From a virus: a DNA stretch of 20,297 nucleotides. Under the pieces are notes generated by a model. That model searched no databases. It had not been told where the DNA came from and saw only the letters and a program-made list of their open reading frames with translations. Each line of letters begins with the position of its first letter. The first letter of the stretch is position 1. The stretch is from UHGV virus genome UHGV-0082109; one strand, 5' to 3'. Both the position numbers and the translations under genes were made by a program. This document shows, piece by piece, positions 60 through 15,327 of the stretch.

Positions 60-650
60 ATGAAATTATTAAAATATATCTTTAAGAGAGTTGTAGGAGT
101 AATACCCATTTTGATAATAATATCATTTGTATCATTTGGGCTTATGAATTTAGCACCAGGAGATCCGGCAGAAGCAATATTGACTTCTCAGGGAGCTGTT
201 GTAACATCAGAAGTTTTAGAAAGCACTAGGGTAGAGATGGGATTAGACAAACCTTTTTTAGTACAATATCTAAATTGGATGAAAAATTGCTTAAAAGGAG
301 ATTTTGGCATTTCCTATTCTACAGGGGTATCGGTAAAGGAAGAGTTATTTAAGCATTTACCATATACCATAACACTTACAGCCACAGCCATGGCTATAAC
401 TATACTTGTTTCGATTCCCATTGGAATAATAGCAGCAATTAATAAAGATAAATTTATAGATTCTATAATAAAAGATCCTAAGGTTAAAACTAGCGGATTG
501 AATGATAGTGAGATCTTGGAAAAGGGCGTTAATACAGTTTCTGGTCTTTTGAATCATATAAACACAATTGATAAGAGTTATCTCGATAAGCTAAAGAGAA
601 AATACGGAAATACGATTGTCGATATGCTTTTTTACAAGAATGTAAATTAA
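60..650 (+). CDS. 2-TM membrane protein: N-terminal half of an OppB/DppB-type peptide ABC permease, with a hydrophilic ~70-aa tail replacing the remaining TM segments
   Basis: ORF of 196 aa with GGAG 8 nt upstream of the ATG. The N-terminus (KYIFKRVVGVIPILIIISFVSFGLMNLAPGDP ... GLDKP ... QYLNW ... GDFGISY ... LPYTITLTATAMAITILVSIPIGIIAAINK) matches the conserved N-terminal pattern of OppB/DppB permeases as I recall it. Two hydrophobic helices (about aa 11-31 and 100-127). After aa ~130 the sequence is hydrophilic and unlike a permease. AT-rich codon usage. Confidence 0.5.
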   Translation: MKLLKYIFKRVVGVIPILIIISFVSFGLMNLAPGDPAEAILTSQGAVVTSEVLESTRVEMGLDKPFLVQYLNWMKNCLKGDFGISYSTGVSVKEELFKHLPYTITLTATAMAITILVSIPIGIIAAINKDKFIDSIIKDPKVKTSGLNDSEILEKGVNTVSGLLNHINTIDKSYLDKLKRKYGNTIVDMLFYKNVN

Positions 651-651
651 A

Positions 652-2004
652 ATGAAAATAAATATTGAGATCTCGAAAATCCAGCATGTTGAACATATGT
701 CATTTGCTATTGATCTTTCTGAAAATAAACTGACTTGCATTGTAGGAAAGAACGGTGCTGGAAAGACAACGCTAATCAAAGCAATTAAAAATTTACAATC
801 AGCAGATACATTCATAAAGACATCTTCTAGATATATATTCAATCCTGACAGTAGTATAGTATATAATATTAATGATCAAGATATAGTATATGTCTATGAT
901 GAGAATTTGAAGGTAATAGATACTAAGCAAATAATTCCAGCAGATATAAAATCCAATCTTTATGTCGAGTTGCCCATTCCTCATGGAATGAGGTTCAATA
1001 ACTTCCCAACACTTAGTAAAATTGATACTGAACTTAGAAAAAGTATTGCGTTTGAAAGCTATAGCGTTCCCGAGGATTTGATAAATATACTCAATGAGGT
1101 ATATCAGTCTTCTTCTTACAATAATCTTAAAGCATTTTCTGTAAAAAATGAAATTTTCTATTTCAGATTGAATGAGAACGGAACATACATAAGGGAGGAT
1201 TACTTTAGCTCGGGTGAGTATTTTATTTTGAATTTATTTAGAATGATTGAGCTCAAAAGAAAATTCATTGTCATAGATGAGATAGATATATCACTAGACT
1301 CTTCGGCGCAAGTCCATCTTATAGCAGTGCTAAGGAAATATTGTCAGAGACACTCGGTGAATATTGTATTCACAACACATTCACTTGCTTTAATGCAAAC
1401 GCTGAATGATGATGAATTGTACTATATGTGCGAAGGTGATGCTGGAACTACAATTACAAATCGATCATATAATTATATAAAAAGTACGCTTTTTGGATTT
1501 AAAGGATGGGATAAGTACATTCTTACTGAAGATGAAGTTCTGCAAAATTTCTTAGAATATATAATTAATGCTCCTGGGAATGATTACTTCTACGAATATA
1601 AAATAATATATGTTGGTGGAGGAACTAATGTCATTGATTTAATGCGTCGTAATGAGAGAGAGAGCTTTCTCACGACTCAACAGAATGTGATCTCAGTGTT
1701 AGACGGAGATCAATTAGGTCAAAGGTATGCTCGAGGTGAAAATATTTTATGCATACCTTTCCAAAGCGTTGAGAAGGATTTCTATCAAGCATACGGCCAA
1801 GATGAATCGATCCCGAGAGTTACAACTAGAGGTAACGATAAACTTGATAAGCAAGTTTATCGAGGGGTAGTGAAAACCTATAACAACGGCTGGGATGAAA
1901 CTAGGATTTTTGAGTACCTTGAGAGGTTAAAGCCTGATGAATGTGAGGCTTTCAGGCAAAAAATTAGAGCATTTCTCCAAAGAAATATTTCGGCAGAGGG
2001 TTGA
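652..2004 (+). CDS. ABC-type (AAA_15/AAA_21-like) ATPase with a C-terminal Toprim-like domain; OLD-family-like nuclease candidate
   Basis: ORF of 450 aa whose ATG lies 1 nt after the upstream stop (TAA-a-ATG), so likely coupled. Walker A GKNGAGKTT (aa 32-40, nt 745-771); signature-like SSGE (aa 186-189); Walker B FIVIDE (aa 205-210); H-loop-like TTHS (aa 241-244). C-terminal ILTEDEV (aa 290-296), VGGGTN (aa 321-326) and LDGDQ (aa 350-354, nt 1702-1710) are spaced like the Toprim E / G-rich / DxD motifs of OLD-family proteins. It sits where P2 carries old, just left of cos. Confidence 0.7.
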   Translation: MKINIEISKIQHVEHMSFAIDLSENKLTCIVGKNGAGKTTLIKAIKNLQSADTFIKTSSRYIFNPDSSIVYNINDQDIVYVYDENLKVIDTKQIIPADIKSNLYVELPIPHGMRFNNFPTLSKIDTELRKSIAFESYSVPEDLINILNEVYQSSSYNNLKAFSVKNEIFYFRLNENGTYIREDYFSSGEYFILNLFRMIELKRKFIVIDEIDISLDSSAQVHLIAVLRKYCQRHSVNIVFTTHSLALMQTLNDDELYYMCEGDAGTTITNRSYNYIKSTLFGFKGWDKYILTEDEVLQNFLEYIINAPGNDYFYEYKIIYVGGGTNVIDLMRRNERESFLTTQQNVISVLDGDQLGQRYARGENILCIPFQSVEKDFYQAYGQDESIPRVTTRGNDKLDKQVYRGVVKTYNNGWDETRIFEYLERLKPDECEAFRQKIRAFLQRNISAEG

Positions 2005-2371: not shown

Positions 2372-3472
2372 TTGAATTATGGATCAGCTATGCTTGGAAC
2401 TTCATCACAAAGAGCTATTTCAGTACAACATGTTGATTTAAATGTAAAGTGTTGGGTCGTTAGACCTGGGATTAAGTATAGATATTTTGCAGACTTCCTT
2501 GAACGCAATATGGTTGCTACTGCTCACTTGGATAGGTTAAGTCCAGATCAAATTGACTTTAATGATGAAATTAACCATGAAAATATTAATCAAAAGGTTG
2601 ATGGGTTAGATACTATTGGTTCAAGAAATATTCATACCCAAATTGAAAATTTCCTCATAGATATGCAGGTCGGTGATGTTGTTTTCACTTTGTCAGGTGA
2701 TATGGTTGTTCCTGGAGTTATTGCATCTTCCGCGTATTTTGAGCGTGAATGTTTAGGTAATAATGAAGGGTTTCATGTAAGACGTAGAGTCACATGGGGA
2801 GAGCCAGTTCGCAGACGAGAGATTCCATTAGCTCTTCAGAAATCGTTTACTGCATACCAGACCGTATTCTCTTTGGGCGGGAAGTCAGAAGAAGTACTGC
2901 ATTGGTTAATGTCATTCTTTATAACGGATAATATTTTCTGTACTAGCTTAAGAGTCGAGCAAGCAGAAGCCATTCGGCATCATACTCTTAAGCAGCTGGC
3001 TGAGCTGGTCGATAGAGTGCAGGTACTTGCGCTATTAATTGGCGAAGAGTTTGATGGCGAGTATACAAACGAAGTTGTTCAGTTTGAGATGGAAAGACTT
3101 TCTAATAATGGAGAGTTATCCTTGACTGCTCAACAAATGTTGATGTCTCCGGGGGATGTTTGGCTACAATTTAAAACAAATAATAGAAAGGCCGGAATTG
3201 CGTTTATGTTAATTATGGGGGCCATTTTTAATCATGATGTAGCCTTCGCTTCAACGGTTGATAATCGTATAAGTGAGGAACTTCGATCTCATATTGAAGG
3301 GAAAAAAGAGGTTGCAATGGATGGATTAAACTTTGATAGAGTTTCTCAAGTTCTAGAGTTGCGTTTAAAAAGACAAAATAGAGGCTTTGTTTCTGCTCGT
3401 CCAACGAACCGTGAGATCGGACAGGGGATCAATTTCCCTGAAGATGGTGATGCGAGGCATGCGAGTGACTAA
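2372..3472 (+). CDS. Hypothetical protein, no recognisable catalytic motif; first gene of cassette B
   Basis: ORF of 366 aa. The track start at 2372 is a TTG; the first ATG is at 2390 (MLGTSSQ...), and neither has a strong SD, so the start is uncertain. AT-rich at the 5' end. No Walker A, HExxH, GxSxG, HNH-like Cys/His pattern or HEPN Rx4-6H was found by eye. Stop TAA at 3470-3472 sits 2 nt before the next ATG. Confidence 0.55.
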   Translation: MNYGSAMLGTSSQRAISVQHVDLNVKCWVVRPGIKYRYFADFLERNMVATAHLDRLSPDQIDFNDEINHENINQKVDGLDTIGSRNIHTQIENFLIDMQVGDVVFTLSGDMVVPGVIASSAYFERECLGNNEGFHVRRRVTWGEPVRRREIPLALQKSFTAYQTVFSLGGKSEEVLHWLMSFFITDNIFCTSLRVEQAEAIRHHTLKQLAELVDRVQVLALLIGEEFDGEYTNEVVQFEMERLSNNGELSLTAQQMLMSPGDVWLQFKTNNRKAGIAFMLIMGAIFNHDVAFASTVDNRISEELRSHIEGKKEVAMDGLNFDRVSQVLELRLKRQNRGFVSARPTNREIGQGINFPEDGDARHASD

Positions 3473-3474
3473 CT

Positions 3475-4164
3475 ATGAACTTTGAATTTGTAAAAGAACA
3501 CTGGCTGATAATAGGCATGCTATTCATAGCATGTCTATTATTAATTTTAAAATTCAAAGATATTTACAGAACACACGATCAGTTTAATAACGTCGTGATG
3601 TCATTGTGCGCTGTTTTGACACTTGTGTGGGGAGGATATACTTTTGATGTTTTGCACCAAAGGGATAAGGCAGAAGCTGATCTTATAGAGTTAAGAAATA
3701 GAATTAGAAATACAGAATCGACATTTTTTAATGTTGACGTTAATGTTGTTAAAATCGATGATGTGTTTTATATAAAGCCTATTGTAACTATTAGGAATAA
3801 CAGTAATGAGCGAATTTATGTGAAGCTTAATAACAAGTCCCTTGCTGTTAGTCGTGTTTTATCGGCCGGTGCAAAGCAAGTCGCTACGGAAGTTTTTTAT
3901 CCAAATTATTATGAGGAGTTGGCTGTTCTTAATGAAGAAAGTAGCTCGCAAGGAAAAGCTAAAAATATACCTTTATATGATATATCCGTTCCTATCTCTG
4001 CCGAAAGACGCTTGAACTATCTTGTTTCGACAAAAGAAAAAGGAATGTATTATGTAACATTTAGTGCTGAGGCAATGAACGAAGATGGCTCGCCTGTTTC
4101 TAAATACATAAATGGGAAAAAATCTATATGGTTTTCTTCTTCATATATTGAAGTTAAAGATTGA
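3475..4164 (+). CDS. 2-TM membrane protein with a ~170-aa C-terminal soluble domain; candidate effector of cassette B
   Basis: ORF of 229 aa, coupled to the upstream gene. Hydrophobic helices WLIIGMLFIACLLLILKF (aa ~10-27) and VVMSLCAVLTLVWGGYTF (aa ~40-57), followed by a hydrophilic, beta-rich region. AT-rich. Confidence 0.6.
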   Translation: MNFEFVKEHWLIIGMLFIACLLLILKFKDIYRTHDQFNNVVMSLCAVLTLVWGGYTFDVLHQRDKAEADLIELRNRIRNTESTFFNVDVNVVKIDDVFYIKPIVTIRNNSNERIYVKLNNKSLAVSRVLSAGAKQVATEVFYPNYYEELAVLNEESSSQGKAKNIPLYDISVPISAERRLNYLVSTKEKGMYYVTFSAEAMNEDGSPVSKYINGKKSIWFSSSYIEVKD

Positions 4165-4259: not shown

Positions 4260-5288
4260 TTAATTAGATTCTAGACTGTAATCTTTAAAGCGGATGACCT
4301 CCTGACCGAGCCAGCCGTTTATTTCCCGAATCCTGTCCTGTAACGGGATAAGCTCATTGCGGACAAAGACCTTTGCCACTTTCTCAATATCACCCAGCGA
4401 CCCGACGTTCTCCGGCTTGCCACCCATCAACTGAAAGGGGATGCGGTGCGCGTCCAGCAGGTCAGCGGCGCTGGCTTTTTTGATATTAAAAAAATCGTCC
4501 TTCGTTGCCACTTCACTGAGCGGGATAATTTTAATGCCGTCGGCTTTCCCCTGTGGGGCATAGAGAAACAGGTTTTTAAAGTTGTTGCGGCCTTTCGACT
4601 TCACCATGTTTTCGCGAAGCATTTCGATATCGTTGCGATCCTGCACGGCATCGGTGACGTACATGATGTATCCGGCATGTGCGCCGTTTTCGTAATACTT
4701 GCGGCGGAACAGCGTGGCCGACTCATTCAGCCAGGCAGAGTTAAGGGCGCTGAGATATTCCGGCAGGCCGTACAACTCCTGATTAATATCCGGCTCCAGC
4801 AGGTGAAACACGGAGCCGGGCGTGAAGGCTGTCGGCTCGTTGAAGGACGGCACCCACCAGTAAACATCCTCCTCCACGCCACGGCGGGTATATTTTGCCG
4901 GTGAGGTTTCCAGTCTGATGACCTTACCGGTGGTGCTGTAACGCTTTTCCAGAAACGCATTACCGAACACCAGAAAATCCAGCACAAAGCGGCTGAAATC
5001 CTGCTGGGAAAGCCACGGATGCGGGATAAATGTTGAGGCCAGAATATTACGTTTGACGTAAATCGGTGAGCTGTGATGCACGGCAGCACGCAGGCTTTTT
5101 GCCAGACCGGTAAAGCTGACCGGTGGCTCATACCATCTGCCGTTACTGATGCACTCGACGTAATCCAGAATGTCACGGCGGTCGAGTACCGGCACCGGCT
5201 CACCAAAGGTGAATGCCTCCATTTTCGGGGCGCTGGCGGTCATTTTTTTTGCCGCAGGTTGCGGTGTTTTCCCTTTTTTCTTGCTCAT
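4260..5288 (-). CDS. Q: Portal (capsid portal vertex) protein, P2 gpQ-like
   Basis: 342 aa starting MSKKKGKTPQPAAKKMTASAPKMEAFTFGEPVPVLDRRDILDYVECISNGRWYEPP, which matches P2 gpQ from memory in sequence and length (~344 aa). Its ATG overlaps the P stop (ATGA), as in P2. Confidence 0.95.
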   Translation of the reverse strand: MSKKKGKTPQPAAKKMTASAPKMEAFTFGEPVPVLDRRDILDYVECISNGRWYEPPVSFTGLAKSLRAAVHHSSPIYVKRNILASTFIPHPWLSQQDFSRFVLDFLVFGNAFLEKRYSTTGKVIRLETSPAKYTRRGVEEDVYWWVPSFNEPTAFTPGSVFHLLEPDINQELYGLPEYLSALNSAWLNESATLFRRKYYENGAHAGYIMYVTDAVQDRNDIEMLRENMVKSKGRNNFKNLFLYAPQGKADGIKIIPLSEVATKDDFFNIKKASAADLLDAHRIPFQLMGGKPENVGSLGDIEKVAKVFVRNELIPLQDRIREINGWLGQEVIRFKDYSLESN

Positions 5289-7060
5289 CAGTAAAACTCC
5301 AGAATGGTGGATGTCAGCGGGGTGCTGATACCGGCGGTGAGTGGCTCATTTAACAGGGCGTGCATGGTCGCCCAGGCGAGGTCGGCGTGGCTGGCTTCCT
5401 CGCTGCGGCTGGCCTCATAGGTGGCACTGCGTCCGCTGCTGGTCATGGTCTTGCGGATAGCCATAAACGAGCTGGTGATGTCGGTGGCGCTGACGTCATA
5501 TTCCAGACAGCCACGGCGGATAACGTCTTTGGCCTTGAGCACCATTGCGGTTTTCATTTCCGGCGTGTAGCGGATGTCGCGCGCGGCGGGATAGAACGAG
5601 CGCACGAGCTGGAACACGCCGACACCGAGGCCGGTGGCATCAATTCCGATGTATTCGACGTTGTATTTTTCGGTGAGTTTGCGGATGGATTCCGCCTGAG
5701 TGGCAAAGTCCATGCCTTTCCACTGGTGACGCTCAAGTATTCTGAATTTACCTCCGGCCACCACCGGCGGTGCCAGCACCACGCATCCGGCGCTGTCGCC
5801 ACGGTGTGACGGGTCGTAACCAATCCATACCGGGCGGGAGCCGAACGGATTGGCGGCAAACGGCGCATAGTCTTCCCATTCTTCCAGCGTGTCGACCATG
5901 CAGCGTTGCAGCTCCTCGAACGGGAACACCGACGCCTTGTCGTCAACAAATTCACACATGAACAGGTTTTTAAAATCGTCGGCGCTGTTTTCGCGTTTGA
6001 GCTGCTCAATGTCGAACAGCGTGCAGCCGCCTTTCAGGGCGTCCTCAATGGTGACAATCTGTCGCCACTGGCCGTCCGCACAGAGAAGACCTCCGGCAAG
6101 GGCGTTATGACTGACGTCGATTTCCACGCGTTCGGCGGCGCTGGCGCGTCCCCGGTTGAACAGTTCACCCGACCAGAACGGGTAGGCGTCGTGCGCCAGC
6201 GTGGACGGGGTGGAGAAATAGGTCGAGCGCAGGTGACTCTGTGAGGCCATACCTGATGCCACCTTACGCAGTACCTGAAAATTCGGGATCCAGAAAATCT
6301 CGTCGACGTACAGGTCGCCGTTATGGCTCTGCGCGGTATTGGAGTTGGTGCCGAGAAAAATCAGTTTTGCGCCGTTATTGCCCAGGACAATCGGGTCACC
6401 GGTCAGGTCAACGTCAACCAGACGGGCAAAGGCGATGATGTATTCACGGAACACATACGCCTGCGTTTTACTGGCCGACAGAAAAATCTGGTTATGACCG
6501 GTTTTCAGGGCGCGCAGCAGCGCCTCGCGGGAAAAATAAAACGTCGCGCCAATCTGGCGGGATTTCAGGATATCGCGGATGCGGTGCTCAAGCCCGGCGC
6601 GATACCAGTGCAACTGATAGTCGAAAGACTGCTCAAAGAAAATCTGCTCCAGCTTTTCGATGGCCTCGTCACTGAAAAAATTCTTTTTCGGTTTGCGACG
6701 CCCGCCTTTGTTGCGGTTAGCGACGTTCGGATTAAGGTCTGCCTCGTTGCCGGTCTGACTGTAACGGTTAACCCGTGCCAGTCGTTCAATCTGGCGTCCC
6801 AGCAGGTCAATTTCCTTGAAGTCACCGCCGGTTTTCTGCGGTTTGATGATGAGCTGGGTCAGCCGCGCTTCCAGACTCATTTCGACACGGCTGATGGGGG
6901 CAACGCTGTCCCAGCCGTCGCGCTGTTTCCAGCTCTGCACCGTCGGGCGTTTCATCTGCAACATGGCGGCAATCTGCGGCACGGAAAACCCCTGCCAGTA
7001 CAGCAGCGCCGCCTGACGACGCGGGTCGTGTAAAAGAGTGGTGTCTGTGGTGATGGTCAT
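5288..7060 (-). CDS. P: Terminase large (ATPase) subunit, P2 gpP-like
   Basis: The track ORF 5288-7090 begins at a TTG. The start is more likely the ATG at 7058-7060 (MTITTDTTLLHDPRRQAALLYWQGFSVPQIAAMLQ...), which has GAGG 7 nt upstream and gives 590 aa, the P2 gpP length. Convergent with Q and divergent from O, as in P2. Confidence 0.93.
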   Translation of the reverse strand: MTITTDTTLLHDPRRQAALLYWQGFSVPQIAAMLQMKRPTVQSWKQRDGWDSVAPISRVEMSLEARLTQLIIKPQKTGGDFKEIDLLGRQIERLARVNRYSQTGNEADLNPNVANRNKGGRRKPKKNFFSDEAIEKLEQIFFEQSFDYQLHWYRAGLEHRIRDILKSRQIGATFYFSREALLRALKTGHNQIFLSASKTQAYVFREYIIAFARLVDVDLTGDPIVLGNNGAKLIFLGTNSNTAQSHNGDLYVDEIFWIPNFQVLRKVASGMASQSHLRSTYFSTPSTLAHDAYPFWSGELFNRGRASAAERVEIDVSHNALAGGLLCADGQWRQIVTIEDALKGGCTLFDIEQLKRENSADDFKNLFMCEFVDDKASVFPFEELQRCMVDTLEEWEDYAPFAANPFGSRPVWIGYDPSHRGDSAGCVVLAPPVVAGGKFRILERHQWKGMDFATQAESIRKLTEKYNVEYIGIDATGLGVGVFQLVRSFYPAARDIRYTPEMKTAMVLKAKDVIRRGCLEYDVSATDITSSFMAIRKTMTSSGRSATYEASRSEEASHADLAWATMHALLNEPLTAGISTPLTSTILEFY

Positions 7061-7233
7061 GAATACCTCGCCGTGATGAATACACGGCAAGGCTACTGAG
7101 TCGCGCCCCGCGATTCGCTAAGGTGCTGTTGTGTCAGTGATAAGCCATCCGGGACTGATGGCGGAGGATGCGCATCGTCGGGAAACTGATGCCGACATGT
7201 GACTCCTCTAATCACTATTCAGGACTCCTGACA
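7061..7233. promoter_or_regulatory. Divergent intergenic region between P and O; expected site of the Ogr-dependent late promoters (P_P / P_O) by analogy with P2
   Basis: Position only: in P2 the divergent late promoters lie between P and O. A short dyad (ccgtg-N7-cacgg) is present, but I could not find a clean TGT-N12-ACA activator site by eye. Confidence 0.4.
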
Positions 7234-12559: not shown

Positions 12560-12989
12560 TGCCGTCACGGTGCTGAAAACCAGTCCCGAGATGCTGCGGA
12601 TATTCGTGGATAACGGGAGTATTGCCTCCACACTGGCGGCGTCGTTGTCATTCGAAAAGCGTTACACGCTCAATGTGATTGTGACCGACTTTACCGGTGA
12701 TTTTGACCTGCTCATCGTGCCGGTGCTGGCGTGGCTGCGGGAAAATCAGCCCGACATCATGACCACCGACGAAGGCCAGAAAAAGGGCTTCACGTTTTAT
12801 GCAGACATCAACAATGACAGCAGCTTTGATATCAGCATCAGCCTGATGCTGACCGAGCGCACGCTGGTCAGTGAGGTGGACGGCGCGCTGCATGTGAAGA
12901 ATATCCCGGAACCCCCGCCGCCGGAGCCGGTCACCCGCCCGATGGAGCTGTATATCAATGGCGAACTGGTGAGCAAGTGGGATGAATGA
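12522..12989 (+). CDS. R: Tail completion protein, P2 gpR-like
   Basis: 155 aa (MLKPDSLRRALTDAVTVLKTSPEMLRIFVDNGSIAS...), matching the P2 gpR length and sequence from memory. Confidence 0.9.
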   Translation: MLKPDSLRRALTDAVTVLKTSPEMLRIFVDNGSIASTLAASLSFEKRYTLNVIVTDFTGDFDLLIVPVLAWLRENQPDIMTTDEGQKKGFTFYADINNDSSFDISISLMLTERTLVSEVDGALHVKNIPEPPPPEPVTRPMELYINGELVSKWDE

Positions 12990-13434
12990 GTTTAAGCGTT
13001 TTGAAGACCGGCTGACCGGACTGATTGAATCGCTGTCACCGTCAGGGCGTCGGCGACTGAGTGCCGAACTGGCGAAACGTCTGCGGCAGAGTCAGCAGCG
13101 TCGGGTGATGGCACAGAAAGCCCCGGACGGCACACCCTACGTGCCACGCCAGCAGCAGAGCGCCAGAAAAAAGACCGGTCGCGTTAAGCGAAAAATGTTT
13201 GCGAAACTTATCACCAGTCGTTTTTTGCATATCCGCGCCAGCCCGGAACAGGCATCAATGGAGTTTTACGGCGGAAAGTCACCGAAAATCGCCAGTGTGC
13301 ATCAGTTCGGTCTGTCGGAAGAAAACCGGAAAGACGGTAAGAAAATTGATTATCCGGCGCGTCCTCTGCTCGGCTTTACCGGTGAGGATGTGCAGATGAT
13401 TGAAGAGATTATTCTGGCTCACCTGAATCGCTAG
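12982..13434 (+). CDS. S: Tail completion protein, P2 gpS-like
   Basis: 150 aa (MNEFKRFEDRLTGLIESLSPSGRRRLSAELAKRLRQ...), overlapping the R stop. Matches P2 gpS from memory. Confidence 0.9.
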   Translation: MNEFKRFEDRLTGLIESLSPSGRRRLSAELAKRLRQSQQRRVMAQKAPDGTPYVPRQQQSARKKTGRVKRKMFAKLITSRFLHIRASPEQASMEFYGGKSPKIASVHQFGLSEENRKDGKKIDYPARPLLGFTGEDVQMIEEIILAHLNR

Positions 13435-13537: not shown

Positions 13538-14611
13538 TTACTTGCCATTTTTCAATGCGTTGATTAACGATGCTATTTGTTCAATACCATCAAATGTAGA
13601 TGGTATCTTATCATCGGATAGCATGATGTTTGAAAATACTACGTCTTCAAATTTTGAAAGCGCTTCCGGATTGTTTTTCCTTATCTCTGAGGAATAGTCG
13701 CTATAACTCTGAATGAACTGACAAAGGCTCTTTCTGAGTTCTATTTGCATAATCTGAGTTCGTAACGATATATGATTTATCAGTACAACTCTAAAGTAAT
13801 ACATGAAAATCAATGTAACTGATGCAAAAGGTAGTGCTGACATAAAATATGTGGCAGCATTTGTCGTTTCGAGAGTTGGTAATTTATGCATTCCATAGTA
13901 TATCAGCGGGGAGGGAATGATTATAGCCAAGATGATAAGAATTATTCTTGATAGCATGATTTCACTTTCTTTCTTTTTGCCAAGTGAATTAAAGCCATCA
14001 AACAATCCAACAAAATTAAATGCGACCTCATACCCTTTTAATGACTCTTTAATTGACTCTATTTTGGCATGTTGCTCCTTTAAGAAGGAGTCGCACTTTT
14101 CGAAAAATTGACGCCCTTCGTTTAAACTATCAATGTATTTTTTATATGTGTCAACATTGCTGGAGCTTAAAACTTCTTTAACCATTGCTAATGGCAGTTC
14201 TCTAAGAGAAAAGTCTATCTGTGCTCTGCTCCGCTCATCGAATTCATTATAGTTATACAGAGCAAAATCCTTGATGGTTCTTAGTGGTGAAAAGTGAGAC
14301 TCTATTTCCGGAGAGAGAATGCTTGGTTCAATGATAAATCTAAAAAAGCAAGTGAATATAAGGTTGATGCTGTTGTTATCTTCTCCCTTTTCTCTTAAGA
14401 AACTTTTAAAGGTGTCGCCAATCATAGCAATGTTGTACTGGGATTTTTTGTCCCAATCTTCAGGGTTTTCGGAAATGAAGTTTATTGCTTGAGCAATTAT
14501 TTTGTTTCTGTTTGATTCAAAGTTTGTGCTGGGAGTCAGCGTGTTCAAAAAGACCAGATAATCTTTGAACAATTCTTTCATTGTTTCTGACGAGAAAAAG
14601 TAAGTACTCAT
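13538..14611 (-). CDS. AT-rich accessory membrane protein in the S-V intergenic slot (soluble N-terminal domain, two central/C-terminal TM helices); function unknown
   Basis: Minus-strand ORF. The track start at 14707 would overlap the V start and the GC-rich phage DNA. The first ATG inside the AT-rich DNA is at 14609-14611 (MSTYFFSSETMKELF...) and gives 357 aa; an alternative ATG (MKELF) lies 30 nt further in, and the SD is weak for both. Hydrophobic segments are IILIILAIIIPSPLIYYG and ATYFMSALPFASVTLIFMYYF. The stop abuts the terminator hairpin. Confidence 0.6.
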   Translation of the reverse strand: MSTYFFSSETMKELFKDYLVFLNTLTPSTNFESNRNKIIAQAINFISENPEDWDKKSQYNIAMIGDTFKSFLREKGEDNNSINLIFTCFFRFIIEPSILSPEIESHFSPLRTIKDFALYNYNEFDERSRAQIDFSLRELPLAMVKEVLSSSNVDTYKKYIDSLNEGRQFFEKCDSFLKEQHAKIESIKESLKGYEVAFNFVGLFDGFNSLGKKKESEIMLSRIILIILAIIIPSPLIYYGMHKLPTLETTNAATYFMSALPFASVTLIFMYYFRVVLINHISLRTQIMQIELRKSLCQFIQSYSDYSSEIRKNNPEALSKFEDVVFSNIMLSDDKIPSTFDGIEQIASLINALKNGK

Positions 14612-14697
14612 AATGGATTTTGTTGTCCCTTGTTGTTCTGTGCACCAGAAATCGTGGTGTGATTTACTTCGAGATTGTACAGAATCATTATTATCGA
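14612..14697. promoter_or_regulatory. Region upstream of V; expected location of the late promoter P_V by analogy with P2
   Basis: Position only. It contains a short dyad (cacca-gaaatcg-tggtg) but was not verified against the TGT-N12-ACA consensus. Confidence 0.3.
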
Positions 14698-15327
14698 ATG
14701 AATGCACAATACAATGAAATTCTTCGCTTTATACGCAATATGATTCGCACTGGCATTATCGTCGAAACCGACCTTAATGCCGGTCGCTGCCGTGTGCAGA
14801 CCGGCGGCATGTGCACCGACTGGCTTCAGTGGCTGACCCATCGCGCCGGACGTTCGCGCACATGGTGGGCACCTTCCGTGGGGGAACAGGTGCTGATTCT
14901 GGCCGTGGGCGGTGAACTCGACACGGCGTTCGTTCTGCCGGGGATTTATTCCGGCGATAACCCCGCGCCGTCTACGTCGGCGGATGCCCTGCATATCCGT
15001 TTCCCTGACGGGGCGGTGATTGAGTATGAACCCGAAACCAGTGCACTCACGGTAAGCGGAATTAAAACGGCCAGCGTGACGGCTTCTGATTCTGTTACTG
15101 CCACGGTGCCGGTGGTCATGGTGAAAGCGTCAACCCGCATCACCCTGGACACACCGGAGGTGGTCTGCACCAACAGGCTGATTACCGGCACGCTGGAAGT
15201 GCAGAAGGGCGGGACGATGCGCGGCAACATTGAACACACCGGCGGTGAACTCTCATCAAACGGTAAGGTACTGCATACCCATAAACACCCCGGCGACAGC
15301 GGCGGCACAACCGGGGGACCTCTATGA
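14698..15327 (+). CDS. V: Baseplate spike/central hub protein, P2 gpV-like
   Basis: The ATG at 14698 (MNAQYNEILRFIRNMIRTGIIVETDLNAGRCRVQTGGMCTDWLQ...) gives ~209 aa, close to the P2 gpV length. The track ORF from 14620 is an alternative-start extension. The exact start is uncertain because no clear SD is present. Confidence 0.88.
   Translation: MNAQYNEILRFIRNMIRTGIIVETDLNAGRCRVQTGGMCTDWLQWLTHRAGRSRTWWAPSVGEQVLILAVGGELDTAFVLPGIYSGDNPAPSTSADALHIRFPDGAVIEYEPETSALTVSGIKTASVTASDSVTATVPVVMVKASTRITLDTPEVVCTNRLITGTLEVQKGGTMRGNIEHTGGELSSNGKVLHTHKHPGDSGGTTGGPL

Follow-up and report, generated by a model that had tools for sequence, protein, structure and literature searches.

A compact OLD-like ATPase-Toprim protein in the cos-proximal cargo of a P2-like prophage contig is a probable type I-B1 retron effector

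The viral genome UHGV-0082109 is represented here by a stretch of 20,297 nt (the window), which carries an intact gene for a 450-aa protein at positions 652-2004 (+). This protein is very likely the effector of a type I-B1 retron, a Class 3B OLD protein consisting of an ABC ATPase fused to a Toprim domain, encoded in the cos-proximal cargo hotspot of a P2-like Escherichia coli prophage. The class is already catalogued and presents no novel architecture: it was defined in 2020, received its names between 2020 and 2023 and is modelled in PADLOC, and proteins that are 99-100% identical to the one described here are already present in NCBI and in IMG/VR viral contigs. The window is an entire metagenome contig (ena:ERZ773149 NODE_1333_length_20297_cov_7.49), assembled with SPAdes at 7.5x coverage, and its first few hundred nucleotides derive from another organism. 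Below, we describe the protein and its family, its retron partner, and the contig end that conceals this partner. Furthermore, we compare the system with its known relatives and speculate how it might contribute to defense.

The effector and its family

The gene starts with ATG and is supported by the ORF (open reading frame) call, by PADLOC and by its E. coli matches. Its product comprises an ABC ATPase domain (residues 1-270, nt 652-1461) followed by an OLD-type Toprim domain (residues 271-450, nt 1462-2001). The initial annotation, made from the sequence alone, had read seven motifs from the translation, all of which are found where it placed them. Four belong to the ATPase: Walker A GKNGAGKTT (residues 32-40, nt 745-771), the signature-like motif SSGE (residues 186-189, nt 1207-1218), Walker B VIDEID (residues 207-212, nt 1270-1287; Walker B and D-loop together 1270-1299) and the H-loop TTHS (residues 241-244, nt 1372-1383). 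The other three lie in the C-terminal third, namely ILTEDEV (residues 290-296, nt 1519-1539), the G-rich turn VGGGTN (residues 321-326, nt 1612-1629) and LDGDQ (residues 350-354, nt 1699-1713). Among the C-terminal residues, motif IV reads E293-D294-x-x-L297 (E-D-E-V-L, nt 1528-1542) and the DxD motif is formed by D351 and D353 (nt 1702-1710); an invariant E374-K375 pair follows at nt 1771-1776.

The family assignment comes from the PADLOC model PDLC02914 (ATPase-Toprim_I-B), which matches residues 1-443 over model positions 1-442 of 443 (E 3.3e-179). Secondary PADLOC and NCBIfam matches are to AriA, PtuA and AbiLi (1e-16 to 1e-8), and a Pfam scan of the whole protein returns ATPase families only (ABC_tran, 8e-8). 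According to Table 1 of Mestre et al. 2020, the ABC ATPase-Toprim protein that defines subtype I-B1 has EDxxL as motif IV and DxD as motif V, while motif IV of subtype I-B2 is EGxxE. E293-D294-E-V-L297 together with D351-G-D353 is thus the I-B1 signature. In the OLD nomenclature of Dot et al. 2023, as reviewed in PMC10568477, type I-B1 effectors form Class 3B, with the old gene downstream of the RT (reverse transcriptase) gene, and type I-B2 effectors, Retron-Eco8 included, form Class 3A.

Conservation was assessed in a family alignment of 46 members that are 47-90% identical to the 450-aa query. Invariant ATPase residues are G32, G37, K38, T39, T40, S187, G188, E189, D209, E210, D212 and H243, and the protein therefore has the residues that identify the ABC ATPase of the OLD family: K38 of Walker A, S187-G188-E189, D209-E210 of Walker B and H243 of the H-loop. 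In the C-terminal region, E293, G323, D351, G352, D353 and E374 are likewise invariant, and D294 and L297 are each kept in at least 90% of the members. A database search returned 1166 homologues at E<=1e-5; with the exception of a few fragments, the 120 listed measure about 440-460 aa. The ORF with its motifs is thus no product of chance, and its compact size is shared by the family and does not stem from truncation.

A Toprim fold in the C-terminal third

An AlphaFold2 (AF2) model of the full-length protein, built from the 46-sequence alignment, reaches a pLDDT (predicted local distance difference test) of 88.8 and a pTM (predicted template modeling score) of 0.80. When this model is compared with the PDB by Foldseek, the top match is the Class 1 OLD protein of Thermus scotoductus (6p74; E 9.4e-13), followed by retron I-A PtuA and GajA. 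Because the ATPase head dominates such full-length searches, residues 271-450 were also modelled alone (pLDDT 87.9), and the best structural neighbours of this model are catalytically active OLD Toprim domains. Its predicted topology is beta(288-292)-alpha-beta(316-320)-alpha-beta(346-350)-beta(365-367), with E293 directly after strand 1 and D351-G-D353 directly after strand 3. This is the canonical Toprim arrangement reportedly set out by Aravind et al. in 1998, in which a Glu follows strand 1 and DxD follows strand 3.

Profile-profile comparison leads to the same register. The P2 Old profile was built from 32 P2 Old relatives, in which the invariant Toprim residues are E398, G399, T401, E402, D453 and D455. 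With hhalign, residues 203-333 of the effector family align with Old 292-439 (probability 88.5%, E 2.7e-6), a span that begins at Walker B, crosses the H-loop and reaches into the Toprim domain, and that places 'YILTEDEVL' on 'VLLVEGKTE', with E293 on the invariant E398. Against the single P2 Old sequence, the family profile aligns only over the Walker B/H-loop region. The modelled C-terminal third is thus a Toprim fold, in which the acidic residues E293, D351, D353 and E374 are placed as in Toprim nucleases.

These comparisons bear out the proposal of the initial annotation that the protein is a compact OLD-like ABC ATPase with a Toprim domain: OLD and GajA structures rank high, the C-terminal region maps onto Toprim catalytic residues in the hhalign alignment, and AF2 predicts a Rossmann-like core. 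The proposed resemblance in motif spacing also holds, as the Toprim Glu and the DxD motif are 58 aa apart in the window protein and 55 aa apart in Old.

Where the protein is shorter than P2 Old

P2 Old counts 586 aa, which makes the window protein 136 aa shorter. Distances between the invariant residues of both families locate the difference. From the Walker A Lys to the Walker B Asp there are 171 aa here and 262 aa in P2 Old (-91), from Walker B to the Toprim Glu 84 and 99 aa (-15), from the Toprim Glu to DxD the 58 and 55 aa given above (+3), and from DxD to the C-terminus 97 and 131 aa (-34). In OLD proteins, a helical dimerisation domain is inserted in the ATPase (PMC10568477; PMC12887533), and by this measure of sequence intervals about two-thirds of the 136-residue deficit falls at the site of that insert. 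In the AF2 model, the region is occupied by residues 114-158, about 45 aa that form four short helices only. An earlier estimate that roughly 130 aa are missing, perhaps from the dimerisation insert, is thus largely borne out, as the interval from Walker A to Walker B accounts for 91 of the 136 residues. The accompanying suggestion of a minimal OLD architecture stands as far as compactness is concerned, but not as a new architecture, since this is the known retron I-B1/Class 3B OLD effector.

The retron partner and its prophage context

The gene immediately upstream of the effector is the 3′ end of a retron RT gene. Its last 68 codons and stop codon occupy positions 442-650 (+), end 1 nt upstream of the effector start and encode exactly the C-terminus of WP_024248662, the RT (329 aa) of E. 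coli KE54. The PADLOC model RT_I-B matches this remnant at positions 261-315 of 316 (E 4.5e-14). The contig lacks the remaining RT sequence as well as the msr/msd ncRNA (non-coding RNA). Both the retron affiliation and the RT 3′ end in the ORF just upstream were overlooked by the initial annotation.

Intact counterparts are found in E. coli. Positions 442-2173 of the window are 99.7-99.9% identical at the DNA level to P2-like prophages in at least 10 complete E. coli genomes, where the two genes are annotated as 'reverse transcriptase family protein' and 'AAA family ATPase'. In strain KE54, the replication endonuclease gene gpA is followed by about 325 bp of non-coding DNA and then by the genes for RT (329 aa), effector (450 aa), portal and terminase; the putative ncRNA, the RT and the effector lie at about 4965568-4968237 of NZ_CP141079.1. 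The association extends well beyond this species: across 19 related loci with effector identities of 34-100%, comprising five genomic loci (E. coli, Dickeya, Psychromonas, Methylobacter and Vibrio) and 14 IMG/VR viral contigs, a full-length RT homologue of about 330 aa lies on the same strand directly upstream of the effector in every case (19/19). In 18 of them, 5-36 nt separate the RT end from the point where the effector match starts, and over the whole set RT identity declines in step with effector identity.

The surroundings are those of a P2-type phage. Nine loci were compared with the flanks or gene calls of the window, namely E. coli KE54, the Dickeya locus and seven from the set of 14 IMG/VR viral contigs, and P2-type cos and/or gpA, portal and terminase genes adjoin the RT-effector pair in all nine. 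In the window, positions 2111-2173 hold a conserved P2 cos-proximal sequence, 92-100% identical to the genome ends of P2 and its relatives; cosR is annotated at the end of NC_001895. The portal gene (4260-5288, -) and the terminase gene (5288-7090, -) lie beyond it, and the remainder of the window has head, baseplate and tail-fibre genes of P2 type. The cos sequence at 2111-2173 therefore shows that the locus is gpA-cos-gpQ, the hotspot for cargo genes in a P2-like prophage. This hotspot, between replication gene A and portal gene Q, is known to hold retrons (Rousset et al. 2022, PMC9122126), and P2 itself carries old and tin there (NC_001895).

The region upstream of the intact KE54 RT contains a putative msr/msd ncRNA (L001, 2900-3215), with a minimum-free-energy fold at z = -3.07. 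In the predicted structure, a terminal long-range pairing (GAGUUUUUUU... with ...AAAAAACAAAAGCUC) encloses several hairpins, including one of 22 bp (CUUGUACUGCCUUCUCU/AGAGAAGGUAUGUACAAG). Folding of this one locus suggests a retron msr/msd. At the gathering threshold, Rfam returns nothing for the window or for the intact locus of E. coli, and a curated model for type I-B1 ncRNAs seems to be lacking in Rfam 15.

A probable assembly chimera at the 5′ end of the contig

The loss of most of the RT gene coincides with a change in the origin of the DNA. ORF 60-650 (196 aa) is a hybrid, in which residues 1-128 are the N-terminus of a NikB/Opp-type ABC permease (NCBIfam Opp1B, 4e-44, at the start of the ORF) and residues 129-196 are the RT end. 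In a search of genome collections, the permease part has matches with 100% protein identity in Clostridium lentum and Clostridium sp. CAG:221, and the sequence upstream of the break is about 99.8% identical to C. lentum at the DNA level. Positions 1-441 thus represent the promoter region and the first 128 codons of the C. lentum/CAG:221 permease gene; none of the 5,426 complete genomes of E. coli matched positions 1-460 by megablast or blastn.

A three-way DNA alignment places the junction at 442-462, an exact 21-mer (ATAAAGATAAATTTATAGATT) common to the C. lentum permease and E. coli RT genes, at which the contig changes source exactly. After the 21-mer there is one mismatch, and then eight more positions match between the Clostridium and E. 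coli genes. The smallest default k-mer of SPAdes is 21. Since the contig was assembled by SPAdes at 7.5x and its Firmicute and E. coli prophage parts meet at a coincidence of 21 nt, the join is best read as an assembly chimera and not as a biological fusion. The apparent fusion ORF 60-650 is therefore an artefact, and the effector is neither a true orphan nor a member of a transporter operon.

Relation to known systems

Among the known systems, the type I-B1 effectors (cluster 22_2/Class 3B OLD) share everything that could be compared: the PADLOC I-B match, the EDxxL and DxD motifs, the place directly downstream of the RT, and a length of about 450 aa. The protein itself shows no difference from them; only the RT and ncRNA of the contig are cut off by the chimeric join.

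Retron-Eco8 OLD (type I-B2, Class 3A, PDB 9lp9, 738 aa) is likewise a retron-associated ABC ATPase-Toprim effector and a likely functional analogue, in the sense of an msDNA (multicopy single-stranded DNA)-gated nuclease that mediates abortive infection. However, it has about 290 aa more, its Toprim domain is expanded and it carries a four-helix dimerisation domain; its motif IV is ExxxE (E398/E402), as opposed to EDxxL in the window protein. Furthermore, its gene order relative to the RT is reversed, and its RT belongs to clade 3, whereas that of I-B1 belongs to clade 1. The E402A mutation abolishes Eco8 defense (PMC12887533).

P2 Old and 6p74, both Class 1 OLD proteins, have the same two-domain order and Toprim fold, with the catalytic Glu and DxD in register, and P2 Old additionally shares the gpA-cos hotspot of P2-type phages. 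The window protein differs from these in carrying L297 in place of the second Glu and in lacking a match to Pfam OLD-like_TOPRIM. By analogy with studied retrons, it would work together with an RT and msDNA, whereas P2 Old works alone.

The PtuA proteins of retron I-A (Ec78/Ec83) and of Septu have a structurally close ATPase (Foldseek E ~1e-11). Retrons I-A and I-B1 both have an RT of clade 1, and the retron-sequestered ATPase-nuclease effector of I-A would have its counterpart in I-B1. In retron I-A, however, the nuclease is a separate HNH protein, PtuB, whereas in the window protein ATPase and Toprim domain are fused, and its gene is not followed by a second effector gene.

Weighing the alternatives

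Several results weigh against a type I-B1 effector with an active Toprim domain. In Pfam, residues 271-450 have no match even at E<=10, neither to Toprim nor to OLD-like_TOPRIM (PF20469), on which P2 Old scores 1.2e-17 in the same comparison. Searches of PDB sequences with phmmer and a profile hmmsearch (E<=0.01) gave matches in the ATPase region only and never to Eco8 OLD, and the C-terminal profile alone aligns with the Old family in the same register without reaching significance (hhalign, E 0.099). The second motif-IV Glu, E402 in both P2 Old and Eco8, is L297 here, and the active site therefore differs from those of the characterised OLD proteins. On the side of the retron, Rfam gives no match for the KE54 ncRNA region at E<=1, and in the literature we found no published experiment, structure or biochemistry for any type I-B1 retron. 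As for the Toprim domain, we consider the question settled, because structure and profile-profile comparison agree and it is the sequence methods alone that are weak.

The missing Pfam Toprim match and the missing second Glu would also suit a Septu/PtuA-like or PARIS AriA-like ATPase, of which the C-terminal domain is a non-catalytic, Rossmann-like adaptor while another protein serves as nuclease. Such a protein would explain the secondary matches to AriA, PtuA and AbiLi, and the I-B1 ATPase does share cluster 22 of Mestre et al. 2020 with retron I-A PtuA (as 22_2). Nevertheless, this is improbable: no HNH/PtuB or AriB gene follows the effector in the nine related loci that were examined downstream, the invariance of E293, D351, D353 and E374 extends over members that are only 47-90% identical to the query, and the closest structural neighbours of the domain are OLD Toprims with catalytic activity. 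A stand-alone, Class 1-like OLD nuclease working without a retron, as P2 Old does, or a true orphan left by deletion of the RT and ncRNA, would account for a window without an intact RT or ncRNA, and has a precedent in the single-gene old at the equivalent position of P2. We nonetheless hold it to be very unlikely, given that the last 68 RT codons remain 1 nt before the effector and are identical to the intact E. coli locus, that the break coincides with a 21-mer common to DNA of another phylum (C. lentum), and that all 19 related loci have kept a full-length RT. Least credible of all, to the point of being almost certainly wrong, is an ATP-binding subunit of an ABC importer in an operon with the upstream NikB/Opp-type permease fragment. 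ORF 60-650 does begin as a nickel/oligopeptide permease, the effector does match ABC_tran, and some relatives bear database names such as 'spermidine/putrescine ABC transporter ATP-binding protein'. However, the permease piece comes from Clostridium and was joined on by an assembly artefact, the effector bears an additional Toprim domain of 180 aa, its ATPase is structurally closest to the heads of Rad50, SMC, PtuA and OLD, all NCBIfam transporter matches are far under their cut-offs, and the conserved neighbour is an RT.

A possible mechanism

How a type I-B1 effector might act can be sketched by analogy with Retron-Eco8 (type I-B2) and with retrons Ec78 and Ec83 (type I-A), from which msDNA production, defense, trigger and substrate are all borrowed here. 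The RT would reverse-transcribe the ncRNA into msDNA, and RT and msDNA together would keep the ATPase-Toprim protein in an inactive standby complex. Once a phage factor had bound or altered the msDNA, the Toprim nuclease would be released or activated and, by metal-ion catalysis, would destroy nucleic acid (DNA or tRNA) and kill the infected cell, resulting in abortive infection. In Retron-Eco8, the RT, msDNA and OLD protein form a tetrameric assembly, the phage SSB (single-stranded DNA-binding protein) binds the msdDNA, and phage and host DNA are degraded (PMC13402713; PMC12887533). Eco8 is described as cutting DNA, and P2 Old and AriB as cutting tRNA. Copying the Eco8 model literally to type I-B1 would be unwise, because the second motif-IV Glu that is essential in Eco8 is replaced by a conserved Leu, with a conserved Asp beside the first Glu, and because the insert that drives Eco8 tetramerisation is rudimentary in the window protein.

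Other genes in the window

Between the cos region and the portal gene, positions 2372-4164 (+) hold a two-gene cargo. The first gene encodes a DUF8426 protein of 360-366 aa with a weak match to PADLOC PDC-S02 (best 2.5e-12) and a match to phrog_10226; the second encodes a 229-aa protein without a family match. Other E. coli prophages carry the pair with 99.7-100% identity, and it is probably another candidate defense module in the second half of the P2 hotspot.

Among the 5,426 complete E. coli genomes, none carries both this retron and the DUF8426 pair. In retron-bearing prophages, the portal gene follows almost directly after cos, and prophages with the DUF8426 pair have different cargo on the gpA side, such as an HTH (helix-turn-helix) protein with another RT in strain Ec-U9-2. 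The retron part and the DUF8426 part of the window overlap only in the ~65-bp conserved cos sequence (junction 2109-2173). Either natural recombination at cos brought them together, or a second join was made in assembly, in this case between two co-resident P2-like prophages.

Further along, the tail-completion gene S (12982-13434) and the baseplate spike gene V (14620-15327) flank an oppositely oriented ORF of 388-389 aa at 13538-14707 (-), at the site where P2 has its orf30 moron. Its product has a match in phrog_9373 (4e-134), a family without an assigned function, and none in Pfam or PADLOC.

Concluding remarks

With near-identical copies in many sequenced E. coli prophages, the discovery value of this locus is small. 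As a contig, it is an annotation trap: DNA of two species is joined in frame, which gives a false 'permease-RT' fusion ORF beside an ABC-type ATPase, and an automated pipeline could misread it as a transporter operon or as an orphan effector. The 450-aa protein itself is a clean example of the class and the smallest known OLD-type ATPase-Toprim, which makes it a reasonable target to set beside Retron-Eco8. Tentatively, and with the odds rather against it, Class 3B OLDs may form a mechanistically distinct, minimal branch of the OLD family, because an E-D pair replaces ExxxE, the helical insert is rudimentary compared with the dimerisation domain, and the Toprim domain is not expanded. Such a branch might assemble with RT and msDNA in another way than the 4:4:4 tetramer of Eco8, and might act on a substrate other than bulk DNA, for example tRNA.

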